Shown: positions 631 to 34,654 of the stretch, in pieces | Layout of the letters: each line of letters opens with the position of its first letter | How positions within the stretch are numbered: position 1 is the first letter of the stretch | Assembly: GCA_036338555.1 (NCBI GenBank) | Contig: JAYZBY010000136.1 | Coordinates: forward strand, 1 to 36,288 | Source of the DNA: Acidobacteriota bacterium | GTDB taxonomy: Bacteria; Acidobacteriota; UBA6911; RPQK01; JADFOI01 | Length of the DNA: 36,288 nt | Direction: 5' to 3' | The notes under the pieces: generated by a model | Databases searched by the model: none | Seen by the model: only the letters and a program-made list of their open reading frames with translations | Told to the model about the DNA's origin: nothing | Made by a program: the position numbers and the translations under genes

Positions 631-741
631 GAAGGGGCTGCCCTCCACGACCAAGGATAGCAAGATATTTACCACCAAGGCACAAAGACACAAAGAAGAC
701 TAGCTCAGTCGTTCCTTCGGAGCGATGTCTAACAGGCTCCA

Positions 742-5973: not shown

Positions 5974-7743
5974 ATGAAAGTAACGAGAACGACGACGACC
6001 AGTATGACAGTCCTCCTATTTTTGTTGGGTCTGAGCGGTTGTGCCTCCAGTGTGCCCGAGGGACTGGCACCCGACATGGTCTTGCACAATGGCAAGATCG
6101 TCACCGTGGATGAGAGTTTTTCCATTGCTCAGGCCGTGGCCATTCAAGATGGGCGTCTGATTGCCGTCGGGTCCGACAGCGATGTCCTGGCCCTGGTCGG
6201 CGCAGGGACCGAGGTGATGGATCTGGAAGGGAAGACCGTTTTACCCGGCCTTCATGATTCCCATCTTCACCTGGCCTGGCCGGTGGGTGAGGCTCCCAAT
6301 CCGGCCATCCCCGAACTGGCGGCGGCTCGATCGATTGGAGAGATTGTCGAGATCGTGGGTCGCGAGGCGGAGGCCGCCGCGCCGGGCGAACTGGTGTGGA
6401 TTCCCTTCGGACCGGCCATCGTGGACATGATTGAAGAGAAACGCTGGCCCAACAAGTTCGATCTGGACCCGGTCTCCCCTGACAACCCGGTCGTGATCAC
6501 CTTTGCGGCGGACGGCGTGTATGTCGCCAACAGCATGGCCTTGGAGAAGGCCAACATCAACCGCCGGACTCCCCAGCCGCACCTCAGCGGCTTGATGGGA
6601 GAGTTTGAAATCGATGGCCGGACCGGCCAGTTGACCGGAGTCATGAAAGGACGTTCCGCGGCCCACCTGCTGCGGGAGCCGCTGGAAGTCTGGTCGACCG
6701 ACATCCTGGAGGAGAATATCGCCCGCGCCATTGAGGCTGACATCGTCCCCTACGGCATTACCAGCCTGGCCGACCCTGCCATGGCCAGCAACAATCAACC
6801 CATTCAACACGCCTTTCAGCGGGTGGCCCGGAGCAAGATCGGTGAGTGGGTTCGCCTTAATCTGATGATCCGGATTCCGGTGCGGGCCCTTTCGGCCGAG
6901 GAGTGCATTGACCTGATTCAAGGGCTTCTTTTTGAGCCGCCTCTCAAGAACGACTTCTTCCGGGTGGGAACTTTCAAGCTGAGTATGGATAAGGGATACC
7001 CCGGGGCCAAGCCCTATATCGTGCCCGAGGAGAAAGGGAAAAAGGTTCTCATCGAGGGACACAAGGCGGGATGGCAGCTCTACGTGCACATCACCACGCC
7101 GGAGACCTTTGACTATGTGAGTGAAGCTCTGGAGGAAGCCTACCGGCTCTACCCTCGAGAAGACGCCCGCCATATCTTCACCCATATCCACTACCCGACC
7201 CAGGCCAATGTCGACACCATGAAGCGGTTGGGGATCATTGCCGATTTACAGGTGACCCGCATCTACCATACGGCCGATGACGCCGAGGAGACGATCCATC
7301 AGGACCCCGATCGGCCTCACCTGGGCGACAAGCCCGTGGCTACCTACCGGGATGCCGGGATTTCGGTGATCCTGAGCAGCGACCAGGCGCCGGTGGGTCC
7401 CCTCTTCACCGTCTGGGAAGCGGTCAACCGGGTGCGCAAGTCCGGCAAGGTCTATCAGCCCGAAGAAAGCCTGACGCTGGAGCAGGCCATCCGGGCCATC
7501 ACCATCACTCCGGCCTGGGCTTTCTTTGAAGATGACATCAAGGGGTCTCTTGAGGTAGGGAAATGGGCTGATCTGGTAGTGCTGGGCCAGGATATTCTGA
7601 CGGTTGATCCGATGAAGATCAAAGACATTCCGGTACTCAGGACCATGACGGGTGGCAGGTTCGTCTATGTCAATCCCAACCAGGATCCCGATCAGGAGGT
7701 GAAGTACTATCGATATCCCCAGCGGACTTCTTACCTGGATTGA
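5974..7743 (+). CDS. amidohydrolase family lipoprotein, group II
   Basis: ATG has GGGGGGA 6 nt upstream. Lipobox is LLGLSGC. Other motifs are PDMVLHNGKIVTVDESFSIAQAVAIQDGRLIAVGS, HxH (DSHLH), and the C-terminal GSLEVGKWADLVVLGQDILTV. It ends in TGA (7741..7743). Confidence 0.85.
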   Translation: MKVTRTTTTSMTVLLFLLGLSGCASSVPEGLAPDMVLHNGKIVTVDESFSIAQAVAIQDGRLIAVGSDSDVLALVGAGTEVMDLEGKTVLPGLHDSHLHLAWPVGEAPNPAIPELAAARSIGEIVEIVGREAEAAAPGELVWIPFGPAIVDMIEEKRWPNKFDLDPVSPDNPVVITFAADGVYVANSMALEKANINRRTPQPHLSGLMGEFEIDGRTGQLTGVMKGRSAAHLLREPLEVWSTDILEENIARAIEADIVPYGITSLADPAMASNNQPIQHAFQRVARSKIGEWVRLNLMIRIPVRALSAEECIDLIQGLLFEPPLKNDFFRVGTFKLSMDKGYPGAKPYIVPEEKGKKVLIEGHKAGWQLYVHITTPETFDYVSEALEEAYRLYPREDARHIFTHIHYPTQANVDTMKRLGIIADLQVTRIYHTADDAEETIHQDPDRPHLGDKPVATYRDAGISVILSSDQAPVGPLFTVWEAVNRVRKSGKVYQPEESLTLEQAIRAITITPAWAFFEDDIKGSLEVGKWADLVVLGQDILTVDPMKIKDIPVLRTMTGGRFVYVNPNQDPDQEVKYYRYPQRTSYLD

Positions 7744-12110: not shown

Positions 12111-13538
12111 TCACTCAAACACGTGTTTGAATTTCTTGTACATCTCTTCCCTCAGTTCGGGGCTGGGCCCGCTTATCCTGGGGAAGTCCTTGAGCCTCTC
12201 GTAAGGCTTGCAGGCTTCGATCACGGCCCGGGAACTGAAGCCTCCTGAGCCGTCCCCGGGTCCAATGGGATCATCGCTGGTTCGCATGCTGCGGGTGATG
12301 AGCTGGATCGAGGTTTCCGGATTGGAGCGAGTGCAAAGAGCCCAGATTACCTGGAAGGTGTCGGTCGGGTCGATGTCGTCGTCTACCACGATGGTGTAGC
12401 GATTGGCGTAAAGTCCCGCCTGGCATTGAGAGGCGATCAGGCCGGCTTGCCGGGCGTGTCCGGTGAACTTCTGTTCGATGGAGACGATGTTGAACATCCT
12501 GGAGCCGCCTGCCGGGTGGCACCACACTCCCTGGACACCGGGAACCCCGGCCCCCTCCAGCGCATCCCAGATGCGGGCTGAGCGGGTGAAGGCTCGATAG
12601 ACGGAATGTTCCGCGGGCGGGCGCACCGGCGGTGCCCCCAGGATGATGGGATCATTTCGATGCAGGATGCTGCGCAGGTGGATGATGGGATCGGCCTGGG
12701 GGGGACTGGCGTAGTAGCCGGTCCACTCACCGAAGGGACCTTCGAATTTCTTGGAGCCGGGAATGATTTCTCCTTCCAGAACGATCTCGCTCTGGGCCGG
12801 AATGGGAAGTCCGCTGAAGGGGCCCTCGATCACTTCAATCGGTTCGCCCTGCAGGGCACCCACGAAATCCATTTCGCAGTAGCCGTAGGGGAATTCCATG
12901 GAGGCAACCGTCAAAAAGGAAGGGTGGTGACCGACCGAAATGGCTACCTTGACCGATTCGTTTCGCTCCAGCGCTTTTCGGATATGCATGGCTCCGTGGT
13001 GAGCCAGGGCGATGTGCACGCCTACGGATTGCTCGTCGTGAATCATCACCCGGTAGGTCCCGGTGTTGACCCAGCCCTCGTCGGGGTCGCGGGTGATCAC
13101 CATATCGCCGGTTCCGATGTAGCGGCCCCCGTCGTGTTCATGCCACTTGGGTGTTGGGAACTTCAGAACATTGACGTCCTTGCCTTGCTGGACGTTTTCC
13201 AGAACGGGGCCGTCCTTCACCACTACCGGGGGAATGGGCTTGAAGCTGCCCGCCATTTCTCGCCACTTCTTGACGAAGTCCAGATTGGAGAGATCGGTGG
13301 GCATGCCGAAGGTGAGAGCCACCTTGCGCACAGAGGCCAGGGTATTGGTGATGACCCGATAGCCTTCCGGGTAGCCCTTGATCTTGTCGAATAGCAGCGA
13401 CGGCATGGGATCCATCTGGCTGGCCAGCTCGGTGAGGGCACCCATCTCGTGCACCCAGTCGGCGCCTTCAACCCGACGCACCTCACCCATCTTCTCGGCT
13501 TCTTCGATCCACAGGCGCAGATCAGTACAATTGGGCAT
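12111..13538 (-). CDS. UbiD-family (prFMN-dependent) decarboxylase
   Basis: 475 aa with GGGAG 6 nt upstream of the ATG. PKWHEHDGGRYIGTGDMVITRDPDEGWVNTGTYRVMIHD and the overall length match UbiD-family carboxy-lyases. It ends in TGA (12111..12113) and starts 37 nt after the upstream CMD gene. Confidence 0.85.
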   Translation of the reverse strand: MPNCTDLRLWIEEAEKMGEVRRVEGADWVHEMGALTELASQMDPMPSLLFDKIKGYPEGYRVITNTLASVRKVALTFGMPTDLSNLDFVKKWREMAGSFKPIPPVVVKDGPVLENVQQGKDVNVLKFPTPKWHEHDGGRYIGTGDMVITRDPDEGWVNTGTYRVMIHDEQSVGVHIALAHHGAMHIRKALERNESVKVAISVGHHPSFLTVASMEFPYGYCEMDFVGALQGEPIEVIEGPFSGLPIPAQSEIVLEGEIIPGSKKFEGPFGEWTGYYASPPQADPIIHLRSILHRNDPIILGAPPVRPPAEHSVYRAFTRSARIWDALEGAGVPGVQGVWCHPAGGSRMFNIVSIEQKFTGHARQAGLIASQCQAGLYANRYTIVVDDDIDPTDTFQVIWALCTRSNPETSIQLITRSMRTSDDPIGPGDGSGGFSSRAVIEACKPYERLKDFPRISGPSPELREEMYKKFKHVFE

Positions 13539-13575: not shown

Positions 13576-14136
13576 TTAGAAGTACTCCTCGAGCACTTCA
13601 GGGGGAACATCATCTTCGATTTTGAGGGCACTGGCAAAGGCATTGGTCAGGGCGGAGAGCATTACCACCGAGAGGGCTTCAACGATTTCAGCATCCTCCA
13701 GTCCCTGGGCTCTGAGTGCCTGGATGTCTTCAGGAGAAATGGTGGTCGTGTCGGCCGCCACCTTGCGGCCGAATCGAATGACGGCCAGTTCCCTGGGGTC
13801 CCCTCCCGGAACCTCCTTTCCTTCCCTCAGGGCTATGACGGTTTCCTTTTCCATGTTGAATTCCTTCACGAGGAATCGGGAATGCCCGCCCACTCAGTAA
13901 AAGCAGTTGCGCACGTCGGAGGCGGCAACGAAAAGGAGCTCCTTGAACTGGCGGCTGAATTTGCCTTTGCTCATCACCAGGTTGTAGCCGGAGGAAGATG
14001 CCCTTAAGGCCGGGGCGAAGTGAGCCATCATGGCGTAAAGGGGTGAAGGGCGTCCATGCTCCTTCACGAAGGCGTCGATCAGGCGCTGGCCCTCCGGCTC
14101 CAGGTTCTCCAGGTCGGGAAAGGGAATTAAAGCCAT
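13576..14136 (-). CDS. carboxymuconolactone decarboxylase/AhpD-family protein with predicted selenocysteine (in-frame TGA at 13894..13896)
   Basis: The track ORFs 13894..14136 and 13576..13893 are contiguous and in one frame, separated only by a TGA. Joined they give 186 aa: ...ELLFVAASDVRNCFY-U-VGGHSRFLVKEF... The TGA falls at the second Cys of the family motif C-x-x-C-x-x-x-H. A SECIS-like hairpin lies 16 nt downstream. AAGGAC SD precedes the ATG at 14136. Confidence 0.75.
13859..13877 (-). other. SECIS-like hairpin downstream of the recoded TGA
   Basis: The mRNA reads GAUUCCU-CGUGA-AGGAAUU, a 7-bp stem including one G.U pair with a 5-nt apical loop containing GU. The stem begins 16 nt after the UGA. 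Confidence 0.55.
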
Positions 14137-31292: not shown

Positions 31293-33170
31293 TTAGTTGG
31301 AGCGATCCTTGAGGGCCTGATAGGTGGAGATCACCGCCTGATCGGGTCTCAGATCAGTCTCGGCGGCGAAATCGGGATGAAGGTACATCGGCCTTCCCCC
31401 CAGAATCGTCATGAGAGACTGGATCTCGGAGATATCTTCTTCCGGAATGCTCATATAGTCTTTGTCGAGGACCACCAGATCGGCCAATTTGCCCTCTTCG
31501 ATCGAACCCAGTTGGTCCTCTCGAAGAACGTATTCGGCGCCCCAGAGGGTGAGGGTCTTCAAGGCGGTAGTCCGATCGATCCGTTCGTGAGCTCCCCAAA
31601 CCTTTCCGTCCACTACGCGAGTGATCAGCATCTCCAGTTCACCCCATACATATTCGTCGCGGTCCATCTCAAAGGCCACGTGGATTCCGGCGTCGATCAT
31701 GCTTTTGACCGGGACCAGATACTGGTTGGCGATCTCCTCGCCATAAGATCGAGCGATACTCGGATAATTGGCGATGTACTTGGGGGCACAGCTCCACACC
31801 ACCCCCATGCGGGCGGCTCTCGCAATGTCCTCCGGATTGACCAGCGTGCAGTGATCCAGAGCCCAGTTCTGGACCGATGAGGGTCTTTCCCGGTTCACCT
31901 GCTCCAGCGCCGTTAAATAGAGCTCCTGTGCCCGATCCCCGGCCACATGCATGTTGGCCACTCGGTGGCCGTACCGGGCCACTTCAAAAAGCCACTCCCG
32001 GTAGTAGTTGCCGCTAATGGGTGCGCCTCGGCCCACGCTTCCTCGATACTCCAGATCCAGATGACACTGACCACTGGGATACCAGGCACCGATAAGGGAG
32101 AGTCCCATGGTGCCCTGATCGCCGGCGGCGTCGTTGTTTCTTTCCAGGGCAGTACATTGTCGAGCACCGCTTCCGTCCAGACCGACGGGGGTGACCGAGG
32201 CCATCCACACCATGGCGCTTCCCTCGCCTCTGGTGGTGTTCGCCAGACGCTCCCCCACGTCGGGGCGTCCGAACAGCCAATTGGCACCGTAGGCCATTCT
32301 GGTCTTCAGTTCTCCGTTGGATTCGAGCAGGCGATAGGCTTCGACGCTTTCCGGCTGCAGTTTGGTGGAAACGGTGGTGATCCCCATGGCACTCCACTCT
32401 TCCAGCTTCTTGTTATAGACCGGAGCCAGGACCTCAGGGGCCGGTTGGGGTCGAAATTCGGTCATCACCAGTCGGCTGGCGGGAGGCTCCAGATGCCCAT
32501 CGGGTCTGCCCTGGTCATCCACCCAGTAGCGACCGTACCTGGTGATGAAGTCGCCGTACTTATTCCACAAAATGTCGATCGCCTTGCTGTTGACGAAATA
32601 CCCGTTTTCGATGGGAATCCCCATGGAAAGAACGATGGGATTGTTGGGGCTGACCTTGTCCAGTTCCCAGCGATCCAGTTGATCGAACAGGATTTCGACG
32701 TGCTTCCGGTCACTGATGCCCCGGGAAGAGAAGTGAACCCATTCTCCGGGTTGGACGTCAATGGCATCCAGGGTTCGACGGATCTGGTTGAGCACATCGT
32801 CGGTCGATTGGACAACCCGAAAGTTGATGGGATAGTTGCGCATCTGATCGGAGCTCAGCTGTCCACCATAGGCTCGTTGTGCGTAGCTTTGCACGTGGGA
32901 GTGGGTGTCGATCAGACCTGGGACCACGGTTTTACCTTTCAGGTCAATCCTTACCGTGTTCGGACCCGCTTGTCTCAGGACTTCGGCGATGCTGCCCACC
33001 GACGCGATTTTGCCGTCGCGGATGGCCACGGCTTCGGCCACCGTGAAATCCTCATCGACTGTCAGGATCTCGCCGTTGTGCAAGATCATGTCGGCGCGCT
33101 CCTGGGCTAATCCTGAGGTCACGCCCAGCAACAAAACGATTCCCAAAAAAGTACCAACTCGCTTGAACAT
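31293..33170 (-). CDS. exported amidohydrolase family protein, group III
   Basis: The start is set at ATG 33170 (MFKRVGTFLGIVLLLGVTSGLAQE), with AAGGGGA upstream and only 10 nt after the stop of 33181..33810. Motifs are ADMILHNGEILTVDEDFTVAEAVAIRDGKIASVGS, HxH (DTHSH), and GSIEEGKLADLVVLDKDYMSIP. Confidence 0.85.
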   Translation of the reverse strand: MFKRVGTFLGIVLLLGVTSGLAQERADMILHNGEILTVDEDFTVAEAVAIRDGKIASVGSIAEVLRQAGPNTVRIDLKGKTVVPGLIDTHSHVQSYAQRAYGGQLSSDQMRNYPINFRVVQSTDDVLNQIRRTLDAIDVQPGEWVHFSSRGISDRKHVEILFDQLDRWELDKVSPNNPIVLSMGIPIENGYFVNSKAIDILWNKYGDFITRYGRYWVDDQGRPDGHLEPPASRLVMTEFRPQPAPEVLAPVYNKKLEEWSAMGITTVSTKLQPESVEAYRLLESNGELKTRMAYGANWLFGRPDVGERLANTTRGEGSAMVWMASVTPVGLDGSGARQCTALERNNDAAGDQGTMGLSLIGAWYPSGQCHLDLEYRGSVGRGAPISGNYYREWLFEVARYGHRVANMHVAGDRAQELYLTALEQVNRERPSSVQNWALDHCTLVNPEDIARAARMGVVWSCAPKYIANYPSIARSYGEEIANQYLVPVKSMIDAGIHVAFEMDRDEYVWGELEMLITRVVDGKVWGAHERIDRTTALKTLTLWGAEYVLREDQLGSIEEGKLADLVVLDKDYMSIPEEDISEIQSLMTILGGRPMYLHPDFAAETDLRPDQAVISTYQALKDRSN

Positions 33171-33180
33171 GTGTTTCCCC

Positions 33181-33810
33181 TTACTTTTTCTCCCCGCCAC
33201 CAACCTGGTCTTGCCCGATCTTCCGGTATTCCTCGTTAAGAGCGATTCCCAGGGCGTCGGCAAGCCGATTGAGATAATTCATTATGCCGATAATGGCAGT
33301 TGCATCCACGATGTCCTCGTCTGAAAAGCCATGACCTCGGAGTTGTCCCAGGTCTTCCGCCGTGCAGGTATGGCCCTGCAGATTGACCTTATCGGCGAAA
33401 TCCAGCAGCGCCCGCGTGGCTTCATCCATAGGCGCCTGTCGATAATCCTTCTTGACGGCTTCGGCCAGTTCCCGGTCTCCCAGCTCGGCACGGAGAAACT
33501 CCCCGTGAGCTTCGACTCAGTAGTGACATTGATTGCCGGCTGAGACCACCACGGCAATCATCTCCTTCTGGGAGCGGGTCAATCCCGAAGGACCGTACAT
33601 CAGGGTGTTGAAGAGGGGAACCCAGCCGCGAGTGACATCGGGGCGAATGCTGGTGGATTTCAAGATATTGGGGATCCAGCCGCGTTGTTTCTGGAAGCCC
33701 TCGTAAAGACTTTTGACGTAGCCGGTGGCCTCTTCCGGATGGACGGTGTCAATCCAGGCAATGTCTTCGATCTGAGCGGTGCTGTCACGCTTGGGATCTT
33801 CTTTAGTCAT
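33181..33810 (-). CDS. CMD/AhpD-family peroxidase-related protein with predicted selenocysteine (in-frame TGA at 33517..33519)
   Basis: Track ORF 33517..33810 ends ...AVVVSAGNQCHY-TGA. The same frame continues without a stop through VEAHGEFLRAELGDRELAEAVKKDYRQAP into track ORF 33181..33429 (MDEATRALLDFADKV...). Joined they give 209 aa with C-H-Y-U-V-E-A-H in place of C-x-x-C-x-x-x-H. A SECIS-like hairpin lies 9 nt downstream. Confidence 0.75.
33489..33507 (-). other. SECIS-like hairpin downstream of the recoded TGA
   Basis: The mRNA reads CACGGGGA-GUU-UCUCCGUG, a continuous 8-bp stem with one G.U pair and a GUU apical loop. The stem begins 9 nt after the UGA. Confidence 0.5.
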
Positions 33811-33844
33811 GGTGTTCTCTCTTATTTAAAGTGCCCTGAATCTT

Positions 33845-33955
33845 ACCACCAAGACACCAAGTCAGCTACCACCAAGACACGGATTTCTTCACCACAAAGG
33901 CACCAAGAAGAGAAAGACAACTGAAAAGACGAAGGCACTGGGTGTCTCTGTGGTG
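33845..33955. repeat. cluster of CACCAAGA / CACAGAGA-type octamer motifs
   Basis: accaccaagacaccaag...accaccaagacac...caccacaaaggcaccaagaagagaaagac...gaaggcac...ggtgtctctgtggtg, where the last is an inverted copy. Related strings occur at 671..700, 9282..9294 and 9420..9432. Confidence 0.65.
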
Positions 33956-34654
33956 CTAGCGGGGATGGCGGCGGTAAACGGCGGCGTAGACACTGCGGAA
34001 GGGGGATACGCAGTAATCCTCAATCAGTTGTTTGCCGGCAATGGGGTGGGCACAGAGTTCCTGGGTAAAAGAGTCGCTGACACGAAAGGAAAGGCGCATG
34101 ATATCGGCCTTTTTCTCATGCCGCTCAACCTGGAAAGCCTTTTCCAGGCTGGGCTCCAGCTTAAAAATTTCTTCATAGGAATGGCTTCTCAGCTGATAGG
34201 GCGAGGTAACTGGGTGCGTTTCCACTTCCCGGTAGTGGGAGAGCAGGGAGGATTGGAAATCCTGGTAGTTGAAGTTCTCAACCTTGTTGTTGACGCTGAT
34301 TTCGATGACACAGTGCTGATCGTCGCAATACGACCTGAGGCCGTAGGTGAAATCGAGCTCGTCTTTATTGAATTTGATGCGATGACCGGCTACATCGTGG
34401 AAATATTTGAGCTCCGCTTCTCTGGTGGAGGGGTGCGATTGGCGCTCGAGCTCCTGCTCCGTGAGATAATGTCCGGCTACCCGTTCGTACCACTCGTCGA
34501 TGATCTGGCCCAGGACCTCCTCTATGCCTGTATAGACCTGTTTTATTTTGCTCTTGGTCGTCACCATATCTTGTCGCTCGAGCCGCAGGATATTGTAAAC
34601 CAGGTTGGGCCGAGGGGCAACAGGCCGGTGTGGGGACAGACGAAGATGAGGCAC
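33956..34654 (-). CDS. hypothetical protein (no family recognised)
   Basis: The minus frame has strong G/C preference at third codon positions and normal amino-acid composition. The overlapping plus-strand ORF 33950..34660 is L/V/G/F-rich, as expected of an antisense artefact. The start could be the GTG at 34654 (GAGG 7 nt upstream) or the ATG at 34567. Confidence 0.6.
   Translation of the reverse strand: MPHLRLSPHRPVAPRPNLVYNILRLERQDMVTTKSKIKQVYTGIEEVLGQIIDEWYERVAGHYLTEQELERQSHPSTREAELKYFHDVAGHRIKFNKDELDFTYGLRSYCDDQHCVIEISVNNKVENFNYQDFQSSLLSHYREVETHPVTSPYQLRSHSYEEIFKLEPSLEKAFQVERHEKKADIMRLSFRVSDSFTQELCAHPIAGKQLIEDYCVSPFRSVYAAVYRRHPR

Follow-up and report, generated by a model that had tools for sequence, protein, structure and literature searches.

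A predicted AhpD-like selenoprotein gene with an in-frame TGA at the CxxC site from an uncultured marine Acidobacteriota lineage

The minus strand of the window (the whole 36,288-nucleotide stretch of DNA analyzed here) carries at 33810..33181 what is very probably a single functional gene for an AhpD-like thiol/selenol oxidoreductase, in which the internal UGA at 33519-33517 would be decoded as selenocysteine (Sec). From the comparative sequence evidence we put the probability of this reading at about 0.92. Public gene calls split the gene and its orthologs into two ORFs, none of them annotated as a selenoprotein, which hides the predicted selenoprotein from view in these Acidobacteriota MAGs. 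The C-terminal halves form public clusters of their own (P0003 with 120 members and P0001 with 22 members), and one public call reads the TGA as Trp.

One reading frame and one protein family across the TGA

The features of the gene that bear on its reading frame and active site are as follows:

33181..33810, minus strand: predicted AhpD-like (TIGR01926, peroxidase-related) selenoprotein gene, complete, 209 codons plus TAA, ATG at 33810
33517..33519, minus strand: in-frame UGA, predicted Sec codon (residue 98) in place of the second Cys of CxxC, aligned with the Cys98 column
33505..33564, minus strand: active-site segment with the Glu83/Cys95/Tyr97/Sec98/His102 proton relay (Sec98 predicted), spacing E-x11-C-x-Y-U-x3-H

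Translation of 33810..33181 gives one open frame with a single internal TGA at 33517-33519. The upstream ORF (33810..33520) ends in ...SAGNQCHY directly before the TGA; beyond it the frame is free of stops, reads VEAHGEFLRAELGDRELAEAVKKDYRQAP and joins the ATG-started ORF 33429..33181 (MDEATRALLDFADKVNLQG...), which is terminated by a TAA at 33183..33181. The joined protein has 97 + 1 + 111 = 209 residues. A preliminary description, made from the DNA sequence without database searches, had proposed exactly this continuation of the first ORF into the second, with the motif C-H-Y-TGA-V-E-A-H at the join, and our translation reproduced all of it. GTC follows the TGA, and no in-frame start occurs before Met129. 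When all TGA-joined pairs of stop-to-stop frames in the window were scanned, only this gene and a second one at 13576..14136 showed the signature of a genuine split gene.

The same description had placed the joined protein in the peroxidase-related CMD/AhpD subfamily. The TIGR01926 model (peroxidase-related enzyme) matches it over profile positions 1-177 of 178 with 156.7 bits (cutoff 81.8), in agreement with that placement, and the Pfam CMD model PF02627 gives 54.7 bits (cutoff 23). The PDB entries 2pfx, 6k40, 2prr, 2oyo, and 3c1l all align as single chains spanning the join (E 4e-33 to 2e-28), and these matches to five solved structures settle its fold. In the alignment E83, C95, and H102 are invariant, while Y97 and C98 are nearly so. 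The TGA occupies the second Cys of N-x-C-x-Y-C-x-x-x-H, as had been supposed, in the alignment with Cys homologs and with structures 2pfx and 6k40. The relay Glu...Cys-x-(Tyr/His)-Cys-x3-His is thus present with Sec predicted at the second Cys, and its spacing equals that of PA0269 and of the AhpD from Mycobacterium tuberculosis.

The protein is AhpD-like and not AhpD proper. It scores only 20.7 bits with TIGR00777, the profile of canonical AhpD (cutoff 191.95), and no AhpC or other peroxiredoxin partner gene was found in the 36-kb window. It is also not a member of NF041238 (AhpD_rel_CFYUT; 83.6 against a cutoff of 175) or of NF053654 (GroundWater_YciW; 44.9 against a cutoff of 310).

Related genes and a candidate SECIS hairpin

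Related genes were retrieved from GTDB genomes and metagenome contigs using the pattern Q[RK]EMIAVV, which is insensitive to the codon at residue 98. Among 82 related genes this codon is TGA in 52 (53 including the window gene) and TGC or TGT in 29, the latter being the Cys-containing orthologs that the preliminary description had suggested looking for. The TGA-bearing genes span about eight phyla. Carriers of the gene include the MAGs JAPYTY01 (a 91% ortholog), JAZFTY01, and JACZQQ01 and the 985-kb contig_9 of ERZ25070984. The exact 97-aa N-terminal half is present on 20 marine metagenome contigs, and all five contigs examined, which were independently assembled from different samples, have the TGA and an intact downstream frame; a TGC or TGT at 33517..33519 was seen in none of these five assemblies.

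Two structures, one nested in the other, are predicted downstream of the UGA:

33489..33507, minus strand: candidate bacterial SECIS core hairpin, CACGGGGA-GUU-UCUCCGUG, 8 bp, 3-nt loop, first loop base G
33482..33511, minus strand: possible extended SECIS with a 5-bp lower helix (AGCUC/GAGCU) and a 3-nt bulge, seen in the MFE folds of 76 nt and 32 nt

The core hairpin, which the preliminary description had likewise located, begins exactly 9 nt past the UGA and has its GUU loop 17 nt past it; the stem consists of eight continuous pairs, one of them G.U. In isolation it folds with -10.1 kcal/mol; against shuffled sequences z is -4.15, and 1 shuffle in 200 was equally stable. Published bacterial SECIS elements have a loop of 3-9 nt, a stem of 4-16 bp, a G within the first two loop positions, a spacing of 16-37 nt and an MFE of -7.5 kcal/mol or lower (PMC13188914), and the hairpin fits this model in every respect. 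The extended fold reaches -14.9 kcal/mol (z = -2.67) as a single-sequence MFE. The surrounding 76 nt show no generic fold more stable than shuffles (z = -0.10), and generic MFE and z-score were not significant for the 76 nt after either of the two UGAs in the window. Since the 76-nt region is no better than shuffles, folding the wider region from one sequence is uninformative, and support for the hairpin comes from the isolated element together with the comparative data. For the 45 nt that follow the codon, the mean MFE likewise does not differ between TGA genes (-12.8 kcal/mol) and Cys genes (-13.1 kcal/mol). Bulk folding energy was judged unsuitable as a statistic and was replaced by position-specific pairing.

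At the hairpin columns, 79.2% of positions pair in the TGA genes, 46.9% in the Cys genes and 26–50% in slid controls. Compensatory changes occur in the TGA genes at pairs 15:29, 17:27, and 20:24, and all 39 sequences of the main class have G as their first loop base. The candidate hairpin is conserved with covariation only in the TGA-bearing relatives, while the encoded peptide H-G/A-E-x-L-R constrains part of its sequence. This hairpin is missing in about 13 of the 52 TGA genes, roughly eight of which have a different hairpin further 3'. A search of Rfam gave no match for the whole window at gathering thresholds, nor for 33430-33560 at E <= 10, as expected from bacterial SECIS elements being short and diverse.

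By analogy with the known bacterial mechanism, the hairpin at 33507-33489 would act as the SECIS element during translation and bring SelB.GTP.Sec-tRNA(Sec) to the ribosome, which would then incorporate Sec98 and not terminate. Within the Glu83-Cys95-Tyr97-Sec98-His102 relay, Sec98 would stand where the CxxC pair has its second Cys (Cys133 in M. tuberculosis AhpD). From what is known of the family, we infer that Sec98 would attack as the nucleophile and become linked to Cys95 in a selenenylsulfide while an oxidized substrate is reduced, be it a peroxide, a peroxiredoxin or another compound. Selenoproteins are known in the phylum Acidobacteria.

Decoding of the UGA by something other than Sec-tRNA(Sec) appears very unlikely. 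With a SelC*-type tRNA(Cys) opal suppressor or an acidobacterial allo-tRNA, position 98 would receive Cys or some other residue, either constitutively or under selenium scarcity. Such tRNA(Sec)-like tRNA(Cys) species are possible opal suppressors, and allo-tRNAs of Acidobacteria are possible nonsense suppressors (PMC5389517); no selA, selB, selD, or tRNA-Sec was found in the 36-kb window, which contains no tRNA at all. However, selC* has been reported in Firmicutes, Thermodesulfobacteria, Nitrospirae, and Proteobacteria and not in Acidobacteria (PMC5389517), the family is already catalogued as a selenoprotein family, the SECIS-like hairpin, with its conserved loop G, is the signature of SelB, and other genes in the window use TGA as an ordinary stop. 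A global reassignment of UGA (code 4/25) was considered separately and ruled out, because two other genes in the window end with TGA and 18 Pfam-supported genes have none in their interior.

Selection and translation downstream of the TGA

We favor selenocysteine as the reading of the codon, and the sequence that follows it behaves as part of the same protein. The dN/dS ratio is 0.03–0.23 upstream of the TGA and 0.07–0.26 downstream, with synonymous sites saturated (dS 1–1.9 for distant pairs). Judged from these alignments, the frame downstream of the TGA is under purifying selection.

A rival reading is that of two separately translated genes, a 97-aa N-terminal half and a C-terminal half re-initiated by stop-start coupling, which would form a split enzyme without the second Cys. 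In some orthologs GTG or ATG follows the TGA directly and the called C-terminal halves begin there (P0001-P0004 and P0006), and a canonical start (ATG, GTG, or TTG) stands at that codon in 15 of the 52 TGA genes. The remaining 37 have no start there, and in the window gene, with its GTC and its first start at Met129, residues 99–128 including the invariant His102 are nevertheless under purifying selection. The GTC and the few starts after the TGA rule out a separately initiated ORF as the source of these conserved residues. The stop also lies exactly at the catalytic Cys column, inside the CxxCxxxH helix of solved single-chain structures. The preliminary description had considered that the halves might be found as separate conserved genes, but in every case the halves are adjacent and in the same frame, with a single TGA between them, and we regard the two-gene arrangement as extremely improbable. 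A pseudogene, or an assembly or sequencing error, with a TGC or TGT Cys codon mutated or misread as TGA, needs one base change and agrees with the splitting of the gene by all public gene callers, but it is effectively refuted by the TGA in five contigs that come from different samples and were assembled independently, by a TGA at this codon in 52 related genes spread over about eight phyla, by a downstream dN/dS as low as that upstream (dS being saturated), and by a covarying hairpin that goes with TGA forms only. The preliminary description had likewise found pseudogenization hard to reconcile with two such genes.

Genomic neighborhood and comparison with known systems

Three further features of the window were considered together with the predicted selenoprotein gene:

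13576..14136, minus strand: paralogous AhpD-like gene, second predicted selenoprotein, TGA 13894-13896 in C-F-Y-TGA-V-G-G-H
33956..34654, minus strand: 232-aa protein, clade-specific conserved neighbor, directly upstream of 33181..33810
33844..33880 (33867-33880 and 33844-33857), minus strand: two exact copies of GTGTCTTGGTGGTA, a possible promoter or operator element, 34–70 nt upstream of the ATG

A second gene of the family with TGA at the same catalytic position had been reported in the preliminary description, and it is indeed there at 14136..13576. The two paralogs are 24% identical, and the product of the second gene reaches 82.0 bits with TIGR01926 (cutoff 81.8). Its metagenome relatives include six TGA orthologs (L083 and L089-L093) and 10 Cys forms. 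The candidate hairpin of this gene (GAUUCCU-CGUGA-AGGAAUU) is weaker, with -5.7 kcal/mol. A comparison of the two SECIS candidates for shared structure had been suggested, and it showed only generic features and no specific structure in common. The covariance model R1, built on the hairpin class of 33181..33810, matches only that gene in the window and finds nothing at the 13576..14136 site at E <= 10. It scores 10–20 bits at the homologous site of Cys genes, owing to shared coding sequence.

The 232-aa protein gave no match in Pfam and NCBIfam. A homolog lies immediately upstream in seven acidobacterial TGA loci, and also in L084-L088. Among the flanking ORFs of 82 loci no neighbor is conserved across phyla; only this clade-specific protein of 200–232 aa recurs, and it belongs to no family. 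The 14-nt direct repeat GTGTCTTGGTGGTA was missed by a general repeat search and confirmed by a direct sequence search; it has three matches in the window at two or fewer mismatches (0.08 expected), and its copies are kept only in contigs of the same species and in L003.

The genes in the window include ten Amidohydro_3 genes, PQQ-type propellers, a TonB-like outer-membrane barrel, a UbiD, and a nitrilase. The gene at 33181..33810 is apparently co-transcribed with the gene of a secreted amidohydrolase downstream of it (33170..31293), and that at 13576..14136 lies directly upstream of a UbiD-family decarboxylase gene. On this basis both predicted Sec paralogs might be dedicated selenol redox components of an unusual catabolic island and not generic antioxidants, and they could serve in the reduction or dehalogenation of a specific substrate, by analogy with the distant CMD relative Bmp8 and its use of thiols. 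We consider such a dedicated role unlikely; its one support is the local gene order, and this is not conserved beyond the closest relatives.

Bmp8 (PDB 6ohi/6ohj), a CMD-family debrominase according to its depositors, is homologous over residues 32–188 (E 2e-5) but far more distant than the peroxidase-related group, and we saw no sign of a halogenated substrate here. Canonical AhpD, which has AhpC as partner, shows low overall similarity; the present gene has no ahpC nearby, and predicted Sec replaces Cys133. The active-site spacing is nonetheless identical to Glu83/Cys95/Tyr97/Sec98/His102 both in M. tuberculosis AhpD (Glu118/Cys130/His132/Cys133/His137) and in Pseudomonas aeruginosa PA0269 (Glu36/Cys48/Tyr50/Cys51/His55). 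The Cys homologs 2pfx, 2prr, 2oyo, 3c1l, and 6k40 can be aligned over ∼165–170 residues and share N-x-C-x-Y-C-x-x-x-H and the conserved Glu 12 residues ahead of the first Cys, with a Cys where the window gene has UGA. They are mostly structural-genomics entries without a defined substrate, and 6k40 was deposited as 'Alkyl hydroperoxide reductase AhpD'. NF041238 and NF053654 are AhpD/YciW-related NCBI models with Sec at the CxxU site.

AhpD-like proteins with CxxU form an abundant family that has been recognized for many years. AhpD-like selenoproteins (COG2128, CxxU) were first described in the Sargasso Sea selenoproteome in 2005 (PMC1088965); the GOS study named the family 'AhpD-like 1' and counted 299 Sec and 902 Cys homologs (PMC2398784), and it is listed in reviews of 2022 (PMC9312934) and 2026 (PMC13188914). 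As the family has been catalogued since 2005, the window gene is a new member of it from a marine Acidobacteriota lineage. The present analysis confirms the predicted use of Sec in the AhpD-like family for marine Acidobacteriota and many other uncultured phyla, and supplies a clean SECIS alignment in which 39 sequences have one hairpin in common and show covariation. No new principle is involved: in bacterial selenoproteomics this family, its CxxU motif and the mechanism of recoding already count as textbook matter. The catalogued family (COG2128/YciW; TIGR01926) and the predicted protein share the HMM family, the CxxU motif with Sec for the second Cys, the marine origin, the coexistence of Sec and Cys forms, and the type of SECIS, directly downstream with a small apical loop containing G. 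There is no difference in kind; what distinguishes the present case is its source in an uncultured marine Acidobacteriota lineage and the second predicted Sec paralog within the same 36-kb region.

Reading frame, active site and hairpin

Gene 2, the AhpD-like gene under study, is intact, full-length and under selection; a UGA stands at its catalytic Cys position, and a conserved SECIS-type hairpin follows. We put the probability that it genuinely encodes selenocysteine (Sec) at slightly more than nine in ten. The preliminary description had observed a TGA-interrupted gene here, which is confirmed, and had read it as a selenoprotein gene, which is supported by the analyses below.

Features of gene 2 and its upstream region
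33810..33181, minus strand: gene 2 frame, ATG at 33810 to TAA at 33183-33181, 209 codons with one internal stop
33519-33517, minus strand: in-frame TGA, the sole internal stop of the frame
33507..33489, minus strand: bSECIS-type hairpin, CACGGGGA-GUU-UCUCCGUG, 8 pairs, one G.U
33844-33857 and 33867-33880, minus strand: 14-nt direct repeat GTGTCTTGGTGGTA, two exact copies, 34-70 nt 5' of the start codon
33956-34654, minus strand: 232-aa ORF with homologues directly upstream of the Sec-AhpD gene

A mechanical ORF list breaks gene 2 into 33517..33810 (97 aa) and 33181..33429 (82 aa), and the 30 codons between them (residues 99-128) lack a start codon of their own. Read through the TGA, the same frame stays open to the TAA and encodes one 209-residue protein, with the context ...VVVSAGNQ-C-H-Y-TGA-V-E-A-H-GEFLRAELG..., exactly the motif described before. 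A scan of all frame pairs in the window gave no other credible TGA-joined pair besides gene 2 and its paralogue, gene 1.

The joined protein, with Cys put in place of the stop, matches NCBIfam TIGR01926 (peroxidase-related enzyme) over positions 1-177 of 178 with 156.7 bits (cutoff 81.8), and Pfam CMD as well, in agreement with the peroxidase-related CMD assignment proposed earlier. Canonical AhpD was rejected as its identity (TIGR00777, 20.7 bits vs a cutoff of 191.95), and by profile scores it is not a member of NF041238 or NF053654, the '(seleno)protein' AhpD relatives at NCBI. Five solved Cys homologues (2pfx, 6k40, 2prr, 2oyo, and 3c1l) match with E-values of 4e-33 to 2e-28. All are single chains with ~165-170 aligned residues, uninterrupted across the TGA, and have C-F-Y-C or C-V-Y-C facing C-H-Y-TGA. 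Alignment with full-length Cys homologues showed Glu83, Cys95, and His102 to be invariant and Tyr97 and the TGA column (Cys98) nearly so, which places the TGA at the second Cys of CxxCxxxH.

The hairpin begins 9 nt past the UGA and is the 8-bp, GUU-loop helix that had been described at 33489..33507. The consensus for bacterial SECIS (bSECIS) hairpins sets four requirements: an apical loop of 3-9 nt on a stem of 4-16 bp; a G within the first two loop bases, mostly with G or U next; a UGA-to-loop distance of 16-37 nt; and an MFE <= -7.5 kcal/mol (PMC13188914). The gene 2 hairpin agrees with these published values: its loop is GUU, its stem has 8 bp, the loop lies 17 nt from the UGA, and its energy is -10.1 kcal/mol (z = -4.15), or -14.9 kcal/mol when a 5-bp lower helix is added. 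The encoded peptide fixes part of its sequence, the region after the UGA has an unremarkable bulk folding energy, and no Rfam match to the hairpin was found. Helix pairing was counted on gapless alignments covering 51 nt from the codon onward.

Pairing of the gene 2 helix in related genes
52 TGA genes: 79.2% of cells paired
Same columns, partner slid 1-3 nt (control): 26-50% of cells paired
29 Cys genes: 46.9% of cells paired

In 500 shuffles of the TGA set, neither the observed pairing nor the observed covariation score was reached once. Two-sided changes are seen at pairs 15:29 (C-G to U-A, 3 sequences), 17:27 (G-C to C-G, 8 sequences) and 20:24. As the 17:27 covariation couples the second base of a Gly/Ala codon with the wobble base of a Leu codon, peptide conservation alone is insufficient to explain it. 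All five core pairs form in 39 of the 52 TGA sequences, and each of these 39 loops starts with G. About eight of the remaining genes (L013, L028, L030, L063, L065, L071, L076, and L081) carry another hairpin, GACCUC-N6-GAGGUC, a few nt further 3' (~20-40 nt past the TGA). This looks like an alternative SECIS class inside the same protein family, in keeping with how varied bacterial SECIS elements are known to be.

By the mechanism established for bacteria, SelB carrying Sec-tRNA(Sec) would recognize the hairpin while the ribosome reaches the UGA, and would then insert Sec98. Judging from the family, Sec98 and Cys95 would form a redox pair activated by a Glu83/Tyr97/His102 relay. In M. tuberculosis AhpD the second Cys (Cys133) is the nucleophile attacking the oxidised partner, so Sec98 would occupy the most reactive position of the protein, as is usual in selenoenzymes. 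Read-through of the UGA by a non-Sec suppressor could be imagined, since SelC*-type tRNA(Cys) and acidobacterial allo-tRNAs have been described (PMC5389517), but the SelB-type hairpin and the record of the AhpD-like family as selenoproteins make it unlikely.

Conservation of the TGA and selection

The database proteins nearest to gene 2 (70-77% identity) are half-genes, the C-halves starting V/MEAHGEFLRAELGD... and the N-halves stopping at ...CYY. In their contigs the halves form a single frame interrupted by TGA at the matching codon, so they are not separate conserved genes in these relatives. One genome per GTDB species was scanned with the peptide pattern Q[RK]EMIAVV, which takes no account of the TGA position, giving 80 loci. 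The top locus (91% identity) belongs to an Acidobacteriota MAG. Of the three that follow (76-78% identity), two carry the label Acidobacteriota/Acidobacteria and one is an 'uncultured bacterium'. These matches assign the window to a marine Acidobacteriota lineage. With two further loci (L001 and L002) added, 52 loci have TGA as the aligned codon and 29 have TGC/TGT, the latter being the Cys-containing orthologs that the preliminary description proposed to look for; the motif is missing from two. TGA forms occur in Acidobacteriota, KSB1, Calditrichota, Planctomycetota, Chloroflexota, Armatimonadota, Firmicutes, and some Actinomycetota.

Twenty marine metagenome contigs, Tara Oceans included, carry the exact 97-aa N-terminal half. 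The five examined have 5-7 changes relative to the window in 630 nt, and each retains the TGA with an open frame after it; none of these independent assemblies has TGC/TGT at 33517..33519. For six orthologues, dN/dS (Nei-Gojobori) is 0.03-0.23 upstream and 0.07-0.26 downstream of the TGA, with dS of 1.0-1.9 for distant pairs. The region after the 'stop' is thus under constraint as strong as the region before it.

Two separately translated genes, split at the TGA, are contradicted by the missing start codon and by a stop that would fall inside the catalytic helix. The codon directly 3' of the TGA is GTC in gene 2, and ATG/GTG/TTG stands there in only 15 of the 52 TGA genes, so re-initiation cannot account for the conserved downstream peptide. 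A pseudogene, already thought hard to reconcile with two such TGA genes, or a sequencing error is excluded by the TGA in 52 related loci and 5/5 assemblies and by the downstream constraint.

Global UGA reassignment was also rejected: TGA is the normal terminator of 5974..7743 and 12111..13538, and no internal TGA occurs in 18 Pfam-supported genes. The stop codons of 20 window genes are skewed (TAG 11, TAA 7, TGA only 2); in genomes with this G+C content (57%), TGA is usually a common stop.

Neighbourhood and the second predicted selenoprotein gene

Ten Amidohydro_3/Amidohydro_1 genes, an unusually dense island, dominate the window. It also encodes two PQQ-type beta-propellers, a CarboxypepD_reg + OMP_b-brl_4 outer-membrane protein, UbiD, a nitrilase (CN-hydrolase), a cupredoxin, SnoaL, and a Dabb protein; no AhpC or peroxiredoxin gene was found in it. 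The orthologues in L001 (985-kb ENA ERZ25070984 contig_9) and L002 are flanked by the same amidohydrolase/PQQ arrangement, and no neighbour is conserved across phyla. Gene 2 is probably co-transcribed with the amidohydrolase gene 33170..31293 (with signal peptide), because only 10 nt separate them; this linkage is absent in the orthologues of 71-78% identity. The 232-aa ORF has no Pfam or NCBIfam match, and in every close acidobacterial orthologue locus its homologues adjoin the Sec-AhpD gene 5', in the same orientation. Its product could be a functional partner of gene 2. The GTGTCTTGGTGGTA repeat, with a one-mismatch copy at 670-683 (minus strand) in an intergenic-looking region, has 3 matches in the window vs 0.08 expected by chance. 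It is kept only in same-species contigs and the related locus L003, and may be a promoter or operator motif.

Gene 1 and its candidate hairpin
14136..13576, minus strand: gene 1, C-F-Y-TGA-V-G-G-H, TGA at 13894-13896
Loop starting 23 nt past the UGA: candidate SECIS, GAUUCCU-CGUGA-AGGAAUU, second loop base G, then U

Gene 1 has its TGA at the same catalytic position, as previously noticed, but shares only 24% identity with gene 2 and belongs to a different branch of the AhpD-like family. In the databases it is closest to Cys forms with CFYCMGGH (42-49% identity). Six orthologues (L083 and L089-L093, 49-97% identity), obtained from a metagenome scan and one contig look-up, share the TGA codon; ten Cys forms were obtained as well. 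The candidate hairpin is weak, at -5.7 kcal/mol, and Cys forms partly have it too; one compensatory change, A-U to G-C, is seen in L083 and L093. A covariance model of the gene 2 hairpin did not detect it; given this, the structure shared by the two elements is limited to generic bSECIS features and does not extend to a common motif. Gene 1 ends 37 nt short of a UbiD-family decarboxylase gene (12111-13538) on the same strand, which suggests an operon.

Annotation and the known selenoprotein family

The practical value of the gene 2 finding lies in annotation, as this gene is split throughout in public gene calls. The database entries P0001, P0003 (a cluster of 120 members), and P0006 are C-terminal halves called as separate proteins from the codon after the TGA. 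The JGI protein P0005 is recorded with Trp at the Sec site (CFYW), most likely from translation of TGA with genetic code 4. The L001 orthologue has an apparent frameshift near its 5' end relative to L002 (9740-9830, '...gtcaaaacctgtacgag...') and a 5-residue insertion in its C-terminal half (P0006: ...GMRGKLGKPNYLN...); both could be indel errors of a long-read assembly and not real changes.

The active-site residues of gene 2 have the spacing of the AhpD proton relay, Glu-x11-Cys-x-Tyr-Cys-x3-His; PA0269 has Glu36/Cys48/Tyr50/Cys51/His55 as its relay, and M. tuberculosis AhpD has Glu118/Cys130/His132/Cys133/His137 (PMC3141380). The Sargasso Sea study listed 'AhpD-like protein (COG2128), CXXU' as a new selenoprotein family with 27 members (PMC1088965), and in the GOS data it was the fourth most abundant selenoprotein family (299 Sec and 902 Cys homologues; PMC2398784). 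The family is also present in sequenced genomes, and Acidobacteria were credited with selenoproteins already in 2006 (PMC1794560). Reviews from 2022 and 2026 and the BSepDB database carry 'AhpD-like protein, TIGR01926/COG2128 (YciW), CxxU'. Gene 2 adds a member to this established selenoprotein family, whose motif and mechanism were already known.
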